Shown here piece after piece: positions 7,124-36,519 of a stretch of DNA of 37,868 nt. The stretch spans positions 1 through 37,868 of the forward strand of contig JAFPVN010000164.1 in NCBI GenBank assembly GCA_017395275.1. The letters are read 5' to 3'. The notes beneath the pieces were generated by a model. That model ran no database searches. It was not told the origin of the DNA and saw only the letters and a list, made by a program, of their open reading frames with translations. This DNA is from Candidatus Methanomethylophilaceae archaeon (GTDB lineage: Archaea > Thermoplasmatota > Thermoplasmata > Methanomassiliicoccales > Methanomethylophilaceae). Numbering within the stretch: position 1 is the first letter of the stretch; each line of letters opens with the position of its first letter. The position numbers and the translations under genes are program-made.

Positions 7124-8338
7124 TCACTGACCTCCTTCTTTGACTGACCTTGCGATCAGTGCCTTAGACATCGTGTAGGCATAGAAGTATCCGAGCGGAT
7201 CCTTGATGCTCGACATGATGTCGATAATCTTGTCCTCTTTGCATGTGGGGTCCTCTTCAAGGATGGGGAACAGCGATGCGACTGCGGTGAAGACCGATGC
7301 ACCGTGCTCTGTGACCTTGTCAGTGGGTCCGTAGCATCCGCGGCAGGGCTGGCCGACACGGGTACACTTGGCACCGCATCCGCCGACGGTCGCGGCTCCG
7401 AGACACAGGATTCCCTGGTCCATCAGACACTTGTCGGGATCGATGTTGACCTGATAGGGCTCCTTGATCTCGTCGAGTCTCTTGTTCTCCTTGTGCCTGG
7501 GGCACTCCTCGCAGAGGGTCCTCTTGGTGACTCCGATGTGGGTTCCCTTCGGGGGCAGCGCAACGCCCTTGTAGACGAATGCGACGACCGCGTCGAGGAG
7601 CTGTCCGAGGGTCTCCTGGGTAGGGGGGCATCCGGGGACGTAGTAGTCCACGTCGATGACCTGGTCCAGGCTCTTTACCCTGTTGTAGAGAGTGGGGAGG
7701 GTCAGGTGTCCCTCGGGGACGTCGATCTCGGTCTGGGGCACGTGGGGCTTGTCGGGGTACGCCTCGCAGAATGCCTTGGAGGTGGGCGTCTGGTTGTAGA
7801 CGTAGTCCAGGACCTCCTTGGATCCGCCGGGGATCAGGTTGGCCAGGGCGGGGGTTCCGCCGAAGCAGGCGCAGGAACCATAGGCGACGACGAGCTGGGA
7901 CTTCTGCCTGAGCAGCCTGACCATGTGCTCGTTCTCCGCGTTCCTCACTGCACCGTTGATGAGCGAGACGGTGATAGAACCGTCCTCCATCTCCTCGATG
8001 TCCTTCTCCTTTCCGTCAGCTGCGACAGGCCACATGACAATGTCTGCCATCGCGCCGACGTTCAGGACCTTCTCATCGGAATCCAGAACGGAAACGTCGC
8101 ATCCACCGCATGCTGCTGCCCAGTAGATTGCGAGCTTGATCTTTCCGCCCTCGGGTGCTCCGAGACCGGGAACGTATCCGGGGATGGGCTGGTTGGCGTC
8201 GGTCTCAGCGTAGATCGATCCGCCCATGCTGGATGCTCCGGCCGCCGCGGGTGCGGCTGCGGGTGCTGCCGCGGGTGCGGCGTCCTTCTTCTTGTCTTTC
8301 TTCTTGAATAGGTTGCTGAAGAATCCCATCTTACTCAT
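7124..8338 (-). CDS. mvhG: F420-non-reducing hydrogenase small subunit with N-terminal extension
   Basis: 404 aa. The small-subunit core starts at KIKLAIYWAAACGGCD, and further FeS cysteines (GSCACFGG, PGCPP, CLGAATVGGCGAKC) are present. The ATG at 8336-8338 overlaps the mvhD stop by 8 nt. About 65 residues precede the core. Confidence 0.85.
   Translation of the reverse strand: MSKMGFFSNLFKKKDKKKDAAPAAAPAAAPAAAGASSMGGSIYAETDANQPIPGYVPGLGAPEGGKIKLAIYWAAACGGCDVSVLDSDEKVLNVGAMADIVMWPVAADGKEKDIEEMEDGSITVSLINGAVRNAENEHMVRLLRQKSQLVVAYGSCACFGGTPALANLIPGGSKEVLDYVYNQTPTSKAFCEAYPDKPHVPQTEIDVPEGHLTLPTLYNRVKSLDQVIDVDYYVPGCPPTQETLGQLLDAVVAFVYKGVALPPKGTHIGVTKRTLCEECPRHKENKRLDEIKEPYQVNIDPDKCLMDQGILCLGAATVGGCGAKCTRVGQPCRGCYGPTDKVTEHGASVFTAVASLFPILEEDPTCKEDKIIDIMSSIKDPLGYFYAYTMSKALIARSVKEGGQ
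8244..8279. repeat. 12-bp tandem repeat x3 (encodes the Ala-Pro linker of MvhG)
   Basis: GCCGCGGGTGCG / GCTGCGGGTGCT / GCCGCGGGTGCG, read on the minus strand as AAP-AAAP-AAAP-AAA. Confidence 0.7.
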
Positions 8339-8750
8339 CTCCCTTTACGAGCGGGGTGGGTCCGAGCGCCTTGATGGTGTCGACGAACTCACAAATGGTC
8401 TTCTGGAACTTCTCTCCCTCGGAAGCGGAAACCCACTCGAGTTTCAGCCTTCTGGGGTCGAATCCGTACTGCTCGAGAACCATCCTCAGGAGGGCGATTC
8501 TCCTTCTTGCCCTGTAGTTACCGCCGATGTAGTGGCAGTCTGCGGGGTGGCATCCGAGGATCATGACTCCGTCCGCTCCCTTGGAGAACGCCCTGAGGAC
8601 GTGCTCGGGGTCGACACGTGCGGAGCACATGGTCCTGATGATACGGAAGTTGGTGGGCATCTGGAGCCTTGCGACTCCTGCACCGTCAGCTCCCGCGTAG
8701 GAACACCAGTTGCAGCAGAACGTTACGATTCTGGGCTCGAAGTCTGCCAT
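8331..8750 (-). CDS. mvhD: methyl-viologen-reducing hydrogenase delta subunit
   Basis: 139 aa. FCCNWCSYAGADGAG...GCHPADCHY is the MvhD/FlpD signature. Its ATG directly abuts the hdrA stop (TGAATG). Confidence 0.95.
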   Translation of the reverse strand: MADFEPRIVTFCCNWCSYAGADGAGVARLQMPTNFRIIRTMCSARVDPEHVLRAFSKGADGVMILGCHPADCHYIGGNYRARRRIALLRMVLEQYGFDPRRLKLEWVSASEGEKFQKTICEFVDTIKALGPTPLVKGDE

Positions 8751-11700
8751 TCACTCGCCTCCCACGGGGTAGTCGAGGCAGGCATCGATCTCTGCCTGGA
8801 TCTGGATGTTCTTGAATCCCTTCTGCTCCATAGCTCCGGACGGGCATGCTGCGACACAGCATCCGCATCCCTTACAGAGACCTGCGTTGACGTTGGACTT
8901 CAGTTTACCGTCCTTGGAGACGATGGTGATTGCCTTGTACTCGCAGCATCCCTCGCACACTCCGCATCCGTCGCAGTAGTCCTCGTTGACTGAAGCGACG
9001 ATACCCTCGGAGGTGAGGAACTTCTTGGAGATGATGGTCAGGGCCCTGGAGGCTGCTCCGGATCCCTGTGCGATACACTCGTCCATGTGCTTGGGCCAGT
9101 GGGCGAGTCCTGCTACGTAGACACCCTCGGTCGCGAAGTCGACGGGCCTGAGCTTCTGGTGAGCCTCGAAGTAGAATCCGTCCTTGGAGATCGGGACCTT
9201 CACCATCTTGGCGAGCTCCTCCTTCTCCTCGCGTGCGGGTGCGATACCGTTGCTCAGAACGACACAGTCAACGGGGACGGAGACGTCGGCGCCGAGAGTG
9301 AGGTCGAACGCGGTAACGGTGTTGCCGTCGTATGCGGGCAGGGGTGCCTCCTCGTCGTACCTGAGGAACCTGACTCCGACCTCGGATGCCTTCCTGTACA
9401 TCTCCTCGCGGAATCCGTAGGTCCTGATGTCCTTGTGGAAGATGGTGACGTTGGCGGTGGGGTCTGCGAGCTTGATCTGGATCGCGTTCCTCAGAGCGGT
9501 GGTACAGCAGACACGTGAGCAGTATCCGACGGACTCGTTCCTGGAACCGACGCACTGGATGAATGCGACGTTCTTTTTGTTGAACTTGCCGTCCGCGATC
9601 GCCTGCTCGCACTCGAGTCCGGTCATGACCTTCGCGTCAGAGCCGTAGTTGTACTCGGTGGGCTTGTATGCGGGTGCACCGACTGCGAAGATGACTGCTC
9701 CGACAGGCTCGTCGGTTCCGTCCTCGAGCTGGAGGTTGAAGTTTCCGACGAATCCGGGGATGTCCTTGACCTTTGCGTTGAGGTGGACCTTGATCAGGTT
9801 GTTGGAGTTGACCTTGTCGATGAGGCCCTTGACGAACTCGAGGGTGTCGACACCGTTCTCCTTGTGCCTGAAGTTGAGCGCCTGTCCTCCCAGCTGTCCC
9901 TCCCTCTCGACGAGGTGGACCTCGAATCCCTGTGCGGCGATGTCGAGTGCGGTGGTCATACCGGTGATACCTCCACCGATGACTGCTGCCTTCTGGGTGA
10001 CGGGGATCTTTGCTCCCTCGAGAGGCTCGAGGAGGCATGCCTTTGCGATTGCCATCCTGACGAGGTCCTTTGCCTTCTTGGTTGCGGCTTCGGGCTCGTG
10101 CATGTGGATCCAGGAACACTGGTCACGGATGTTGGCCATGTTGAAGAGGTACTGGTTGAGTCCTCCCTCACGGCATGCGATCCTGAACAGGGGCTCGTGG
10201 GTCCTGGGTGTGCATGATGCGACGACTACACGGTTGAGGTCGTGCTCCTTGATTGCGGCGGAGATGGCCTGGAGGGTGTCCTGTGCGCATGCGTACATCG
10301 TCTTGGTCGCGTAGACCACGTGCGGCAGGGTGCCGGCGTATGCTGCAACGGAGGGGACGTCTACTGTGGCACCGATGTTGATACCGCACTCGCAGACCCA
10401 GACACCCACACGGGGCTCCTTGCCTGCAACGTCCTTCTCTGCGGGGTACTGCTTGGGGGCGCAGGGCTCGAAGTTCTCATCGACGATGTATGCTCCGGCC
10501 TTTGCGGATGCTCCCGAAGACTCGGCGACGGTGGTCGGGATGTCCTTGGGTGCGGAGAATGCTCCGGACACGAGGATACCGGGCCTGGTGGTCTCGAGGG
10601 GCTTGAATACCGAGGTCTCACAGAATCCGTACTCGTTGAGTCCGATTCCGAGGACTTTGGCGAGTTCCTCAGCTCCCTCCGGCGGGTTGAGTCCGATGGA
10701 GAGAACGACGAGGTCGTACTCTGCGGAAGTTCCGTTTCCGTCCTTGTCGGTGTAGTTGATGGTGAGCTTCTTGGTCTCGGGGTCCTCCTCGACGTTGGAG
10801 ACACGGGCTCCCCTGTGCATGATGATTCCGTACTGGCCCTGGGCCCTCTTGATGTAGGCCTCGAACTCCTTTCCGTAGGACCTGATGTCCATGAAGAAGA
10901 TGTCCTCCTGGACCTGTGCGTGCTCCTTGGTGATGATTGCCTGCTTGGTCGCGTACATACAGCAGACGGACGAGCAGTACTTCTTCCAGTTCTTCTTCTC
11001 GGACCTGGATCCGCAGCACTGGATGAATGCGATCTTCTGGGGTGCCTCACCGTTGGACGGGCACTTGATGTGTCCGTGGTCAGGACCGGATGCGCACATC
11101 ATCCTCTCGTACTCCATGGAGGTGACGACGTTGTCGTATCTGCCGTATCCGTACTCGGTCGCATAGCCTGCGTCCCAGAGCTGGAATCCGACGGCGGCGA
11201 TGATGGATCCTACCTCGAGGACCTCTTCCTCCTCCTTGTCGGCGTAGTTGATTGCTCCCTTCTTACAGGTCTTCTCACAGATTCCGCACTTGCCGTTGAG
11301 AATCATCTTACAGTAGTTGGGGTCGATGAGAGCGACCCTGGGAACTGCCTGTGCGTGAGGGATGTAAATTGCCTTCCTGGTGGTGAGTCCGTACTCGAAC
11401 TGGTCGGGGATGTTCTTGGTGGGACACTTAGCGACACAGTCACCGCAGCCGGTACACTCTTTGAGCTTGACGTACCTGGGCTTCTTCTTGACCGTGACCT
11501 TAAAGTCTCCAGCCTCTCCGTCGACCTTAACAACCTCTGAGTAGGACATGACCGTGATGTTGGGGTGACCCGCACAGTCTGCCATCTTAGGGGAGAGGAT
11601 ACAAGCGGAACAGTCATTCGTAGGGAAAGTCTTGTCGAGACGGCACATCTTTCCACCGATTGTGGGGTCTTTCTCCACAAGGTAGACATGGATATCCCTG

Positions 11701-11768
11701 TCTGCAAGATCCAACGAAGCCTGGATACCTGCGATTCCTCCACCGATAACCAATGCTGATTTAGTCAT
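8751..11768 (-). CDS. hdrA: heterodisulfide reductase subunit A, long tandem-module form
   Basis: 1005 aa with two FAD-binding loops (VIGGGIAGIQASLDLA at aa 7 and VIGGGITGMTTALDIA at aa 596). Also present are FPTNDCSACILSPK, an inserted 2x[4Fe-4S] ferredoxin (CTGCGDCVAKCP, CGICEKTC), two copies of the IQC.GSR...CS..CC motif, and a C-terminal ferredoxin (CDGCGVCEGCC, CKGCGCCVAACP). A strong GGAGGT lies upstream. Confidence 0.95.
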   Translation of the reverse strand: MTKSALVIGGGIAGIQASLDLADRDIHVYLVEKDPTIGGKMCRLDKTFPTNDCSACILSPKMADCAGHPNITVMSYSEVVKVDGEAGDFKVTVKKKPRYVKLKECTGCGDCVAKCPTKNIPDQFEYGLTTRKAIYIPHAQAVPRVALIDPNYCKMILNGKCGICEKTCKKGAINYADKEEEEVLEVGSIIAAVGFQLWDAGYATEYGYGRYDNVVTSMEYERMMCASGPDHGHIKCPSNGEAPQKIAFIQCCGSRSEKKNWKKYCSSVCCMYATKQAIITKEHAQVQEDIFFMDIRSYGKEFEAYIKRAQGQYGIIMHRGARVSNVEEDPETKKLTINYTDKDGNGTSAEYDLVVLSIGLNPPEGAEELAKVLGIGLNEYGFCETSVFKPLETTRPGILVSGAFSAPKDIPTTVAESSGASAKAGAYIVDENFEPCAPKQYPAEKDVAGKEPRVGVWVCECGINIGATVDVPSVAAYAGTLPHVVYATKTMYACAQDTLQAISAAIKEHDLNRVVVASCTPRTHEPLFRIACREGGLNQYLFNMANIRDQCSWIHMHEPEAATKKAKDLVRMAIAKACLLEPLEGAKIPVTQKAAVIGGGITGMTTALDIAAQGFEVHLVEREGQLGGQALNFRHKENGVDTLEFVKGLIDKVNSNNLIKVHLNAKVKDIPGFVGNFNLQLEDGTDEPVGAVIFAVGAPAYKPTEYNYGSDAKVMTGLECEQAIADGKFNKKNVAFIQCVGSRNESVGYCSRVCCTTALRNAIQIKLADPTANVTIFHKDIRTYGFREEMYRKASEVGVRFLRYDEEAPLPAYDGNTVTAFDLTLGADVSVPVDCVVLSNGIAPAREEKEELAKMVKVPISKDGFYFEAHQKLRPVDFATEGVYVAGLAHWPKHMDECIAQGSGAASRALTIISKKFLTSEGIVASVNEDYCDGCGVCEGCCEYKAITIVSKDGKLKSNVNAGLCKGCGCCVAACPSGAMEQKGFKNIQIQAEIDACLDYPVGGE

Positions 11769-33147: not shown

Positions 33148-34239
33148 TCAGAGCAGTTCGTCCACCAGTTCGACCAGGTCGACGATCCTCTTCTCGGAGC
33201 CGTCGAGACCGAACTGCAGGTTGCTGACGCAGAACGGACAGGTCGTGATGATGGTGTCTGCGAACTCCGCCTCGGAGAGACGTGTGGACGCGATCCTCTT
33301 GGAGTCCTCGGGGAATGCGGACCTGACGCCTCCACCGCCTCCGCAGCAGTGCGCGAACTGGCGGTTGAACTCCATCTCCTTGAACTGGAGCTCGGGGATC
33401 TTGGCGATGACCTGTCTCGGGGGCTCGTAGACTCCGCAGTGCCTGCCGAGGTGGCAGGGGTCGTGGTATGTCGCCACACCCTTCATGGGCTTGAGCTTGA
33501 GGTCCTGCTTGGCGAGGAACTCGGTGATGTGGAGGACCTCGAACGGCACGTCGACGTACTTGGGGTACTCCTTCTTGAACATCCTGTAGCAGCCGGCGCA
33601 CGAGAGTACCAGCGTCTCGATCCCCAGGGACTTGATGGCCTCGACGTTCTTCTTCATCATCTCGGTCACGTCCTTCTGGGGCCATCCGACCCTCTGCATG
33701 ACGGAACCGCAGCAGATCTCGTCGACGGTGGTGAAGTCCACCCCGAGCTTCTTCAGCACGGAGAGAGATGCGGCGGAGGTCTTCTTGCTCCTGTAGGTGG
33801 CGGTGCATCCTGCGAAGTATCCGACCTTGGCCTTCCTGGGCTTGATGCCGAGGGTGTCCACGACGGACTTCTCCTCGGCGTAGGGGTTGTTGTACTTCAG
33901 GATGTTCTCGACCATCTTCTTGTGTTTGGGGAGCATGTGGCCGTTCGCCACGAGGTCCGCGCGGCAGAGCTCGACGATGTCGACGATCTTGACCTTGGAG
34001 GGGCAGCGCCTCTCGCAGTCCGCACAGGTGGTGCATGTGTACACGTTGTTGATGACCGACTCGTCGGCGGGTATCTCGCCGTTGAGCAGGCCGTAGGTCA
34101 GGACGATGCGTCCCCTCGAGAGGGCGGAGTCCCATCCGATCGCTTTGAACGAGGGGCAGACGCTCTTGCAGAAACCGCACATGGTGCAGACGTTGACCGC
34201 GTTCCTTACTTCTTCCAGACTGTCAGTTTTGAATGTCAT
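33148..34239 (-). CDS. HdrD/GlpC/GlcF-like iron-sulfur oxidoreductase (2x[4Fe-4S] + two CCG domains)
   Basis: 363 aa. Ferredoxin motifs CTMCGFCKSVCP and CTTCADCERRCP are present. The CCG-type cysteine motifs are GCTATY...EICCGS and DPCHLGR...HCCGGGGG. Its ATG directly abuts the upstream stop (TAAATG). Confidence 0.85.
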   Translation of the reverse strand: MTFKTDSLEEVRNAVNVCTMCGFCKSVCPSFKAIGWDSALSRGRIVLTYGLLNGEIPADESVINNVYTCTTCADCERRCPSKVKIVDIVELCRADLVANGHMLPKHKKMVENILKYNNPYAEEKSVVDTLGIKPRKAKVGYFAGCTATYRSKKTSAASLSVLKKLGVDFTTVDEICCGSVMQRVGWPQKDVTEMMKKNVEAIKSLGIETLVLSCAGCYRMFKKEYPKYVDVPFEVLHITEFLAKQDLKLKPMKGVATYHDPCHLGRHCGVYEPPRQVIAKIPELQFKEMEFNRQFAHCCGGGGGVRSAFPEDSKRIASTRLSEAEFADTIITTCPFCVSNLQFGLDGSEKRIVDLVELVDELL

Positions 34240-35481
34240 TTACTCAACCCTCGGGATTGTTACGCTTCCGTCGGAGAGGATCAGCACCCTCGCCTCCGGG
34301 TTCTCTTCGAGCGCCTTCTTCACCGCCGCCTCCACGGAAGGGAACGGCGTGATGTTCGCCGAAGCTATGAGCTCGGGATCCAGGTCGGTGACCGCCCAGA
34401 TGTCCGCCCAGACGGCGATCTCCGCCATCTTCGCGGCCTTGTGGTAGCCGAGCTTGTACTCTGATTTCAGGTTCTCCAGGACCTGCTTGGGGTCCTTGGA
34501 CGAAGAGAGCTGCGTGAGGAAGGTGGCGTGTCCCACTCCCTCCCTGCACTTGGAGACCATGATGATCTTCCCGCCCTCCTTGAGCGCCCACTTGCCGTTG
34601 TCCAGCGCCTTCTGGGACTGGTAGAGGTCCACGTCCATCGGATAGGGCGCGACGGAGATGACAACGTCCGCCTTCTCCGGGATCGGCACGACGAAGACCT
34701 TGTTGGCCCACTCGACCGCCTGGGCGAACGCCTTGTTGATGTCCCCCGAGGCGACCTTGTAGATGTTCTGGTGCCTGTCCAGCACCATCTGGATGGTGAA
34801 GATCTTCTTCCCCTTGACCTGCTCCAGCGCATCCATCATGTCCTCGTGGACGGGGTTGCCCTCGAGCACCAGGGACTGGGCCTCCTTGTTCATGGCGAGC
34901 TTGTGGTTGGTCTCGATGGTCCTGAACGAGGCCACTCCGGGCAGGAAGGACTTCCTCCCTCCGGTGTATCCGGCGAAGTAGTGCGGTTCGACGCTGGTGA
35001 TTATGACGAGCCTGTCGGCGTCCACGGCGATCTTGTTGACCTCCATGGGGGTCCCGCTCTTGGCGTCGCCGAGGTATACGCACTCGGATTTCTTCGCGTC
35101 GTGGGCGATGATGCGGTCCTTGAGCTCCTGGTAATGGGAACCGAAGACGTTGTTGTACTCCTCTTCGGTCATGTCCCTGTGGGTACCGGTGGCGATGAGG
35201 TATCTGGCCTTCCTGAGGTCCATCCTCTTGGCCAGCGCGTCCAGGACCTTCGCGGTGGGCGTCGGCCTGGTACCGTCGTTGACGATGAAAACGATGTCCT
35301 CCCCTCCCTCGAGGAACTTGTCGAGGGACTCGCTGCCGATGGGGGCGTCGATGGACGCTCCGATGATCTCGTCGGGGGCGCCTATCTCCACATCGTTGGG
35401 GCTGAACGTTCCGATGTAGTTCCTGTCGGGGATCTCGACTCTCTGGACCCCGTCTCTTCCGTACCTTATGTCTGCGAACAT
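34240..35481 (-). CDS. LarA-like nickel-pincer-cofactor-dependent 2-hydroxyacid racemase/epimerase (DUF2088)
   Basis: ORF 34240..35502 starts with TTG and was trimmed to ATG 35479-35481 (MFADIRYG...). By-eye alignment to L. plantarum LarA keeps NDGTRPTP, ATGTHR, EPHYFAGYTGGRKS (with the Lys that binds the cofactor), and NH. Confidence 0.85.
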   Translation of the reverse strand: MFADIRYGRDGVQRVEIPDRNYIGTFSPNDVEIGAPDEIIGASIDAPIGSESLDKFLEGGEDIVFIVNDGTRPTPTAKVLDALAKRMDLRKARYLIATGTHRDMTEEEYNNVFGSHYQELKDRIIAHDAKKSECVYLGDAKSGTPMEVNKIAVDADRLVIITSVEPHYFAGYTGGRKSFLPGVASFRTIETNHKLAMNKEAQSLVLEGNPVHEDMMDALEQVKGKKIFTIQMVLDRHQNIYKVASGDINKAFAQAVEWANKVFVVPIPEKADVVISVAPYPMDVDLYQSQKALDNGKWALKEGGKIIMVSKCREGVGHATFLTQLSSSKDPKQVLENLKSEYKLGYHKAAKMAEIAVWADIWAVTDLDPELIASANITPFPSVEAAVKKALEENPEARVLILSDGSVTIPRVE

Positions 35482-35577
35482 GATTTGGACCGGTCCGAAC
35501 AACCCGATGACGGTATATAAGGTTTTGATACGCGCGCCTACAACAGATTATAAACGGGGATGCGGTTAAACCGTTGG

Positions 35578-36519
35578 ATGCCGACATTCGAGGAAGTGGG
35601 CGAGAGGGCTCTGGTCGGGATGATCAGGGGCATCGTTGCGAGGGAAGGCTGTCCGGACAATCTGGACGATGACGCCGCAGTGATAGCCATGCCCTCCGGC
35701 GACCTCGTGGTGTGCACCGACTCACTCACCTTCGACCGCCACATGCCCGAGGGCATGACCTACGAGCAGTTCGGATGGATGTGCGGCGCAGCCAACGTCA
35801 GCGACCTCGCAAGCATGGGCGCAAGGCCCACGGGACTGTTGGCATCGATGAATGTGCCAGTATCCATGGATGTGGCCGATATCTGCGAAATCGTGAGCGG
35901 CATAGACCAATGCGCGGAGTTCGCCGGGACGTACGTCATAGGCGGCGACACGAAGCCCGGGAACGGGACGGTCGCCGTCACGGCCATAGGGTCCATGGAG
36001 GGACGCAGGCCGATGACCCGCAGCGGAGCGAGGACGGGAGATGTCATAGCCGTCACGGGACCGCTGGGGGGTCCGGCGGCGGGGTTCCACGCGATCAGGA
36101 ACGGCATCGAATTGAAGGAATCCGTGGACTGCCTGATGGAGCCCATCCCCCGCGTGGAGGAGGGCATCGCCATGGCGGAATCCGGATTGGTGACATCTTG
36201 CATGGACCTCTCCGACGGACTGTCCACATGCGTCAACACCCTCTGCAGGGCCAGCAGGGTGGGCGCGATCATAGAATGGGACCTGCTCCCGATGGAGGAG
36301 GGGGTCCGCGTGATAAACAAGGCCCTGGGGATACCGGAGAAGGACATGGTCATGGACTGGGGCGGGGAGTACGAGCTCCTGTTCACGTTCGACAGGAGAG
36401 ATATAGACGCAATGACCGACACGGGCGTGGACTTCCACATCATCGGATTGGTCACGGACAATGACTGCCTGCTCCACAGGGACGAGAAGTACGAGGTGAT
36501 CGGCGATGGGCGCTATTAG
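35578..36519 (+). CDS. thiL: thiamine-monophosphate kinase (AIR-synthase-related fold)
   Basis: ORF 35560..36519 trimmed to ATG 35578, about 27 nt downstream of TTATAAAC. Motifs are VGERALV, DDDAAVI, CTDSLTFDRH, NVSDLASMGARP, IGGDT and GDVIAVTGPLGG. It ends with TAG. Confidence 0.8.
   Translation: MPTFEEVGERALVGMIRGIVAREGCPDNLDDDAAVIAMPSGDLVVCTDSLTFDRHMPEGMTYEQFGWMCGAANVSDLASMGARPTGLLASMNVPVSMDVADICEIVSGIDQCAEFAGTYVIGGDTKPGNGTVAVTAIGSMEGRRPMTRSGARTGDVIAVTGPLGGPAAGFHAIRNGIELKESVDCLMEPIPRVEEGIAMAESGLVTSCMDLSDGLSTCVNTLCRASRVGAIIEWDLLPMEEGVRVINKALGIPEKDMVMDWGGEYELLFTFDRRDIDAMTDTGVDFHIIGLVTDNDCLLHRDEKYEVIGDGRY

Follow-up and report, generated by a model that had tools for sequence, protein, structure and literature searches.

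The hdrA–mvhDGA locus

We analyzed a 37,868-nucleotide stretch of DNA from Candidatus Methanomethylophilaceae archaeon (contig JAFPVN010000164.1 of assembly GCA_017395275.1; hereafter the window), in which a first-pass annotation had placed a 1005-residue HdrA composed of two non-identical HdrA modules, possibly a covalent pseudo-dimer. The interval 8751–11768 is indeed occupied by a single open reading frame on the minus strand, which has an ATG start, encodes 1005 residues and ends with a TGA stop, and which represents a long form of hdrA. Its ATG is preceded, at a distance of 6 nt, by a GGAGGT motif. The genes mvhD, mvhG and mvhA follow on the same strand (Table 1). The four genes form a tightly packed unit, since the TGA of hdrA directly abuts the ATG of mvhD, the end of mvhD and the start of mvhG share 8 nt, and mvhA begins 1 nt after mvhG. 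The G+C content is about 55–61% throughout the window.

As the first-pass annotation had noted, hdrA stands beside mvhDGA with neither hdrB nor hdrC adjacent to it. A search of the assembly revealed a single hdrC–hdrB pair above the curated cut-offs, located on another contig (C316, 4234–5513) between unrelated genes, so both sets of HdrA partner genes are present in the genome. No second HdrA was found in the assembly (1.88 Mb in 345 contigs, 92.5% complete).

Table 1 Position of the long hdrA gene, of the regions encoding its domains, and of the adjacent mvh genes
Feature	Position	Strand	Basis
hdrA of the long, fused type II form, 1005 aa	8751..11768	-	Open reading frame and translation; NCBIfam HdrA2 and HdrA matches in three stretches; PDB HdrA, E 4e-208
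Module 1, aa 1-432, thioredoxin reductase-like FAD domain	10473..11768	-	phmmer to 5ODC_A 146-511 and 8RVU_a 153-575; structural superposition; conservation
Inserted 2x[4Fe-4S] ferredoxin of module 1, ~aa 97-180	11229..11480	-	Pfam Fer4_16, aa 104-169; Cys conservation
Inter-module linker, aa 433-449 (17 residues)	10422..10472	-	Between the two structurally aligned ranges
HdrA N-terminal FeS domain of module 2, aa 450-585	10014..10421	-	phmmer, aa 450-622 to 5ODC_A 2-174, 217 bits
Thioredoxin reductase-like FAD domain of module 2, aa 586-915	9024..10013	-	Sequence searches, conservation, structural superposition
C-terminal 2x[4Fe-4S] ferredoxin, aa 916-1005	8754..9023	-	Pfam Fer4_7, aa 932-979; alignment to 5ODC_A 514-648
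mvhD, [2Fe-2S] adaptor	8331..8750	-	Pfam FlpD, E 9e-55; junction sequence
mvhG, hydrogenase small subunit, 404 aa	7124..8338	-	NCBIfam VhuG, E 2e-59; Pfam Oxidored_q6
mvhA, [NiFe] hydrogenase large subunit, 505 aa	5605..7122	-	NCBIfam VhuA, E 5e-103; Pfam NiFeSe_Hases

Domain organization of the long HdrA

In phmmer searches against the PDB, three segments of the protein match different parts of the HdrA from M. thermolithotrophicus (5ODC_A). Residues 5–376 align with its residues 146–511, which comprise the thioredoxin reductase-like (TrxR) domain with the inserted ferredoxin; residues 450–622 align with its residues 2–174; and residues 862–996 align with its residues 514–648, which cover the end of the TrxR domain as well as the C-terminal ferredoxin. 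Judged from these alignments, the domain layout relative to 5ODC_A is a permutation. In agreement, Pfam identifies two Rossmann/flavin adenine dinucleotide (FAD) regions (residues 5–41 and 594–902) and two ferredoxin regions (residues 104–169 and 932–979). The NCBIfam HdrA models also match strongly, in three stretches and all below their curated cut-offs: the bit scores and cut-offs are 955 and 1100 for NF040770 (HdrA2), 686 and 1400 for NF041778, and 632 and 1300 for NF041891. The permuted domain order and the presence of one extra TrxR domain split the matches in this way, and the low scores reflect this architecture rather than missing homology.

The alignment to 5ODC_A gives the equivalence of C53 and C56 of module 1 with Cys194 and Cys197, of E221 with Glu356 and of K275 with Lys409, while the ligands of the HA4 cluster correspond to C251, C265, C269 and C270. 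The two residues regarded as marking a bifurcating flavin in HdrA (E356 and K409) are both present in module 1. In module 2 the equivalent positions are occupied by E721 and R760, an HA4′ motif is formed by C739, C750, C754 and C755, and the residues aligned with C53 and C56 are not cysteines.

Module 1 contains a GxGxxG motif (G9/G11/G14), FPTNDCSAC at residues 48–56 and IQCCGSR...CSSVCC at residues 249–270. It also holds the sole inserted ferredoxin of the protein (cysteines 105, 108, 111, 115, 153, 161, 164 and 168), and has neither an N-terminal FeS domain nor a C-terminal ferredoxin. Module 2 opens with the N-terminal FeS domain (cysteines 459, 461, 494, 519 and 551, in motifs at 455–555), which is followed by the second TrxR domain, with GGGITG at residues 598–603 (the GxGxxG glycines being G598, G600 and G603), E621 and IQCVGSR...CSRVCC at residues 737–755. 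This module lacks the inserted ferredoxin and Cys197, and ends with the C-terminal ferredoxin (cysteines 932, 935, 938, 942, 965, 968, 971 and 975). The combination of GxGxxG with CxGSR...CSxVCC is therefore found twice in the chain, at residues 9–14 with 251–270 and at residues 598–603 with 739–755, and the whole protein has one inserted and one C-terminal ferredoxin. Every motif quoted in the first-pass annotation is present at the residues given there, and the domain order that it had described was reproduced in full, including the FeS domain placed after the first module and a second module devoid of both the FPT-DC-C motif and the inserted ferredoxin. From these ligand sets we predict a cofactor load of two FAD and seven [4Fe-4S] clusters. 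The linker between the modules has no helix or strand in the AlphaFold model and shows the lowest identity to a single homolog (minimum 20%, mean 69%).

The modules are 32% identical to each other in the C-terminal part of the TrxR domain (E 8e-23) and 29% identical in the N-terminal Rossmann stretch. When searched alone against the PDB, residues 1–449 match HdrA chains at E 1e-123, and residues 590–1005 match the HdrA of 5ODC (E 5.2e-77) and that of M. marburgensis (8RVU_a, E 1e-78), with the inserted ferredoxin skipped. We also considered module 2 as a generic pyridine-nucleotide oxidoreductase, a doubt that the first-pass annotation had raised, and rejected it, given that the best matches in the PDB are HdrA chains and thioredoxin reductases score far lower.

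Conservation of the two modules

Two sets of homologs were compared: a narrow set of 113 full-length long homologs, with 57–97% identity, and a wide set of 85 sequences drawn from several phyla, among them proteins of Asgard archaea, Bathyarchaeia and bacteria. In the narrow set, C53, C56, K275, both HA4 motifs, the five cysteines of the N-terminal FeS domain, the cysteines of the C-terminal ferredoxin and E721 are strictly invariant, as are the pairs of GxGxxG and HA4 motifs of both modules. The cysteines of the inserted ferredoxin are likewise invariant, except for C105, which is present in 112 of the 113 proteins, and E221 is conserved to the same extent (112/113). Position 760 varies more, being Arg in 90, Lys in 15 and Thr in 8 homologs, with Lys confined to the most distant group (57–59% identity). 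Within residues 626–661 the homologs show only scattered, non-conserved cysteines.

In the wide set E221 is retained in 84 of 85 sequences and K275 in 82, while E721 is found in 68 and position 760 is occupied by Lys (41), Arg (21), Glu (5), His (3), Ala (3) or other residues. The variation of the module 2 equivalents indicates a probable relaxation of constraint at flavin 2. With E221 and K275 fixed and E721 and position 760 drifting, flavin 1 appears to be constrained as a bifurcating site would be, and flavin 2 does not.

Predicted structure

An AlphaFold2 run with the 85-sequence alignment gave a model of the whole chain with a mean predicted local distance difference test score (pLDDT) of 93.5 and a predicted template modelling score (pTM) of 0.93. 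Superposition by VIA-align places residues 2–432 of the model on residues 151–576 of 8RVU_a, the core of the M. marburgensis HdrA, with Z 55.9 and a root mean square deviation (rmsd) of 1.1 Å over 422 residues. Residues 450–999 superpose on residues 2–651 of 5ODC_A (Z 41.3, rmsd 3.3 Å, 545 residues) and on 7BKB_A (rmsd 2.0 Å, 544 residues). The predicted structure thus shows an HdrA core in module 1 and, in module 2, a full protomer minus the inserted ferredoxin, and Foldseek agrees with these assignments. A putative A/A′-like packing of the two modules draws its support from the high pTM and from the complementarity of the ligands.

Occurrence in the Methanomassiliicoccales and beyond

The first-pass annotation had asked whether the long form is the rule in this order. 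We surveyed 121 Methanomassiliicoccales genomes from 7 families and 31 genera, and a long HdrA match is present in every one of them (121/121), mostly as uninterrupted open reading frames of about 1000 residues that span residues 1–1005, including in genomes assembled as a single contig. Close matches include proteins from Methanomethylophilaceae, Methanoplasma, Methanomassiliicoccaceae and strain BRNA1.

Proteins of about 1000 residues that are colinear with the window protein over residues 4–998 in a single stretch also occur outside the order, where clustering at 50% identity places them in well over 50 clusters. Named relatives belong to Hodarchaeota (Asgard), Thermoplasmata, Bathyarchaeia, Desulfobacula, Desulfospira, Desulfotignum and Clostridia/Bacillota. 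The bacterial loci share the motif order of the query, and the Cys197 module comes first in all colinear relatives.

Comparison with known HdrA proteins

The canonical HdrA of the MvhAGD–HdrABC complexes (5ODC, 8RVU and 7BKB) shares with the long protein the four domain types, the cluster motifs, the E356/K409 pair and the MvhD partner, and module 1 superposes on it more closely (1.1 Å) than module 2 (2.0–3.3 Å). The canonical protein is a symmetric homodimer of chains of about 650 residues that has 12 clusters and bifurcates at two equivalent sites, whereas the fused HdrA is a single chain of 1005 residues with a predicted seven clusters and one fully wired site. A literature search found no solved structure of a Methanomassiliicoccus Hdr.

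The long fused HdrA is already known: it is standard in Methanomassiliicoccales and belongs to a published class (type II, BamE-like). Borrel 2014 (PMC4153887) described the HdrA of this order as longer, with two FAD sites, encoded with mvhDGA, and with hdrB and hdrC adjacent to each other elsewhere. Their protein is of the same family and order as that of the window, and length, FAD sites and gene placement all match. Their motif count, in contrast, gave "three 4Fe-4S centres instead of four", where the structure-based count gives seven [4Fe-4S] sites, and the logic of a pseudo-dimer is absent from their account. This logic was put forward by Chadwick 2022 (PMC9012536), who proposed that a fused HdrA itself provides both partners of a heterodimer, on the basis of the complementarity between Cys197 and the N-terminal domain. 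The fused HdrA3/HdrA4 of anaerobic methanotrophic archaea (ANME; PMC9012536) and the type II A3/A4 proteins (PMC12054007) have, like the window protein, two TrxR domains in one chain and a complementary Cys197 and N-terminal domain. According to a study from 2025 (PMC12054007), type II HdrA is defined by the fusion of two distinct type I classes, and many Methanomassiliicoccales are listed in its genome table; of the two halves, the N-terminal one is similar to the short A6 class and the C-terminal one to the A12 class. Duplicated HdrA fusions are also listed in a census of archaeal fusions (PMC11237513). The partners differ, being MvhDGA in the window and FdhB/molybdopterin-family or other proteins in ANME and Methanosarcinales. 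As far as a comparison at the level of the text goes, the module with the N-terminal domain comes first in HdrA3/4 (PMC9012536), while in the window protein and in BamE the Cys197 module comes first.

The closest structural counterpart is BamE of the class II benzoyl-CoA reductase (BCRII) of Geobacter metallireducens, which was solved by cryo-electron microscopy (cryo-EM) and described as "a fused HdrA dimer" (bioRxiv 10.64898/2026.04.10.717634, 2026). In BamE, TrxR1 carries the bifurcating FAD, with Lys280 at flavin N5, and Cys59–Cys62; the FAD of TrxR2 is non-bifurcating and probably structural, with Gln768 in place of the Lys, and the clusters are E1–E7. As numbered in the preprint, Cys59–Cys62, Lys280 and Gln768 fall within 5–8 residues of C53/C56, K275 and R760, and the seven clusters of BamE equal the number predicted for the window protein; both also have an MvhD-like adaptor. 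Position 760 is Arg in the window protein and Gln in BamE. The connections also differ: BamE receives electrons from BamGHI via BamF and delivers them to BamD and BamBC, whereas the long HdrA would receive them from MvhAGD and deliver them to HdrBC and ferredoxin.

The long HdrA of the MetFV–HdrABC–MvhD systems (Moorella, Sporomusa and Desulfobacterota) is colinear over about 1000 residues and has mvhD directly downstream, as in the window. It is about 38–40% identical to the window protein, and its partner is a methylene-tetrahydrofolate (methylene-THF) reductase instead of a hydrogenase. Of the two TrxR domains of the S. ovata HdrA, just one keeps the E/K pair (PMC9430772).

Energy coupling in these gut and rumen methanogens has Mvh–Hdr as its core enzyme, and an asymmetric one-chain design bears on the wiring and gating of flavin-based electron bifurcation. 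Since the architecture, its occurrence in the order and the idea of a self-heterodimer have all been published, and the cryo-EM structure of a homologous fused HdrA is available, the window provides only a further example. What the present analysis adds is the structure-based count of two FAD and seven [4Fe-4S] clusters, the contrast between the invariant Lys of module 1 and the drifting residue of module 2, and the tally over the order.

A probable covalent pseudo-dimer and its possible wiring

We consider the window protein to be a normal Methanomassiliicoccales HdrA of the type II fused form, in which two diverged protomers fold together as a covalent pseudo-dimer, and assign to this reading a probability of about 0.78. 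Module 1 has the Cys197 equivalent (C56) and no N-terminal domain, and module 2 shows the reverse. This split, together with the single copies of the two ferredoxins, makes the modules complementary in the way that an intramolecular HdrA/HdrA′ pair requires. The pseudo-dimer suggested by the first-pass annotation is thus supported by the complementary modules, by the pTM of the model and by the superposition of each module on a solved HdrA protomer.

Anatomy, conservation, module folds and gene context are shown by the data above; from the canonical Hdr structures and BamE we infer the following electron path and role of module 2. MvhAG would oxidize H2 and pass the electrons through the [2Fe-2S] cluster of MvhD, which would dock at the sole C-terminal ferredoxin and the N-terminal domain, both belonging to module 2. 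The electrons would then arrive at the module 1 flavin, the only FAD to have an invariant pair of Glu and Lys (E221/K275). From there, the high-potential electron would move via the HA4 cluster of module 1 to HdrC and HdrB, encoded elsewhere, for reduction of the coenzyme M–coenzyme B heterodisulfide (CoM-S-S-CoB). The low-potential electron would instead pass to a single HA3-type cluster, formed by cysteines of the module 2 N-terminal domain and by C56 of module 1, then to the single inserted ferredoxin and on to soluble ferredoxin. Module 2 is expected to bind FAD and an HA4′-type cluster, with Arg (Lys or Thr in relatives) at the position contacting flavin N5. Having neither an HA3 cluster of its own nor an inserted ferredoxin, it most likely acts as the structural half of the pair, and its flavin would be non-bifurcating, as the second flavin of BamE is.

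Several points weigh against this assignment of roles. Module 2 keeps E721 in all 113 homologs of the narrow set and a basic residue at position 760 in 105 of them, together with all FAD motifs and an HA4′ motif of its own. The contact of C56 with the cluster of the N-terminal domain is one that we infer from complementarity and homology, and the comparison with BamE rests on residue numbers quoted in the preprint. Furthermore, the study that defined type II HdrA (PMC12054007) suggests that both of its domains could bifurcate, and calls the type biochemically uninvestigated. It is conceivable, although improbable, that both flavins are catalytic, giving two bifurcations, or one bifurcation and a second site linked to HdrBC or HdrD via HA4′. 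Such a function would fit the retention in module 2 of GxGxxG, E621, E721, a mostly basic position 760 (R 90, K 15) and the invariant HA4′ motif, the proposal that two bifurcation reactions may take place in a type II HdrA (PMC12054007), and the extra HdrD-like proteins encoded in the genome, one of them within the window. However, with one HA3-type cluster, one inserted and one C-terminal ferredoxin, flavin 2 would have no low-potential exit and no entry from MvhD. In addition, its N5-contact residue drifts among K, R, T, E, H, A and Q while K275 is fixed, a single hdrCB pair was found in the genome, and the second FAD of BamE lies off the branching point (bioRxiv 10.64898/2026.04.10.717634). 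A specific version, in which flavin 2 of Methanomassiliicoccales serves as a second redox port, for instance by docking a second HdrBC or an HdrD-like protein, seems more doubtful still; if true, it would mean a two-flavin Hdr with a stoichiometry unlike that of the canonical enzyme and of BamE, in an H2-dependent methyl-reducing lineage.

The pairing could also take place between chains, with module 1 of one long protein joined to module 2 of another. This domain swap would be compatible with the monomer model; in its favor, the canonical HdrA occurs obligately as a dimer in which a cluster ligand is shared (PMC9012536), and a BamE dimer is present inside BCRII (bioRxiv 10.64898/2026.04.10.717634). 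We regard it as very unlikely, given that the pTM of the single chain points to a confident, compact intra-chain arrangement, that the modules are joined by a linker of 17 residues, and that, in the description of the BamE structure, the fused HdrA dimer is contained in a single subunit. Finally, the long frame might be an artefact, either a collapsed assembly, as the first-pass annotation had cautioned, or a chimeric one, or a generic flavoprotein fused by a mis-call. We found no point in favor of this and reject it: the modules are only about 30% identical, the long form recurs across the order, identical or near-identical proteins occur on other contigs, and module 2 has its own HdrA matches. 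The covalent pseudo-dimer with one wired flavin remains the reading that we prefer.

Variants of the long HdrA

Several variants were seen among the relatives. In three families of the order (f3, f4 and f6), genomes have 4–8 long-HdrA matches each, while the family of the window has one copy per genome. The matches in these families include open frames of about 1170–1220 residues with 44–46% identity, which are possibly HdrA–MvhD fusions. Other relatives (P0122, P0124–P0130 and others) are 1300–1530 residues long and colinear over residues ~159–998, with several hundred extra residues before this region, at a point within or beside the inserted ferredoxin domain; we presume these to be the NfnB/GltD-type insertions of some ANME and Moorella HdrAs. 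A 552-residue protein (P0262) is a stand-alone match to module 2 only (residues 456–998, 54% identity), which suggests that split two-gene versions exist beside the fused form, or may be due to a truncated gene call.

In Desulfospira joergensenii DSM 10085, a metF-like gene, a long hdrA, mvhD, metV (DUF5981) and metF lie in one cluster (L054, 2040–8100). Judging by this neighborhood, the long HdrA scaffold is paired with a methylene-THF reductase in a sulfate reducer. The bacterial representative P0184 had been considered as a BamE orthologue and was rejected, as its group (Desulfobacula, Desulfospira) sits in a metF–hdrA–mvhD–metV–metF cluster and not in a bam cluster. In Deltaproteobacteria bacterium HGW-Deltaproteobacteria-15 (L062:3001–6003), a colinear long HdrA has an in-frame TGA at the Cys197 equivalent (FPTNDCTM*I), which suggests a selenocysteine at this position, in line with the U197 reported for Methanococcus maripaludis HdrA.

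Other genes of the window and the genome

The match of MvhG to the VhuG model begins at residue 65, leaving an N-terminal extension of about 64 residues. Further along the window, on the minus strand at 33148–34239, lies a gene whose 363-residue HdrD-like product has two CCG domains (Pfam CCG, E 6e-32) and, at its N terminus, a 2x[4Fe-4S] ferredoxin. In Methanomassiliicoccales, the Fpo-like complex has been proposed to have HdrD as its partner. Just upstream of this gene is a 447-residue open reading frame (34244–35587, minus strand) with no Pfam match. Additional HdrD/HdrB-like genes are found in the genome on contigs C284, inside a 767-residue open frame, and C153.

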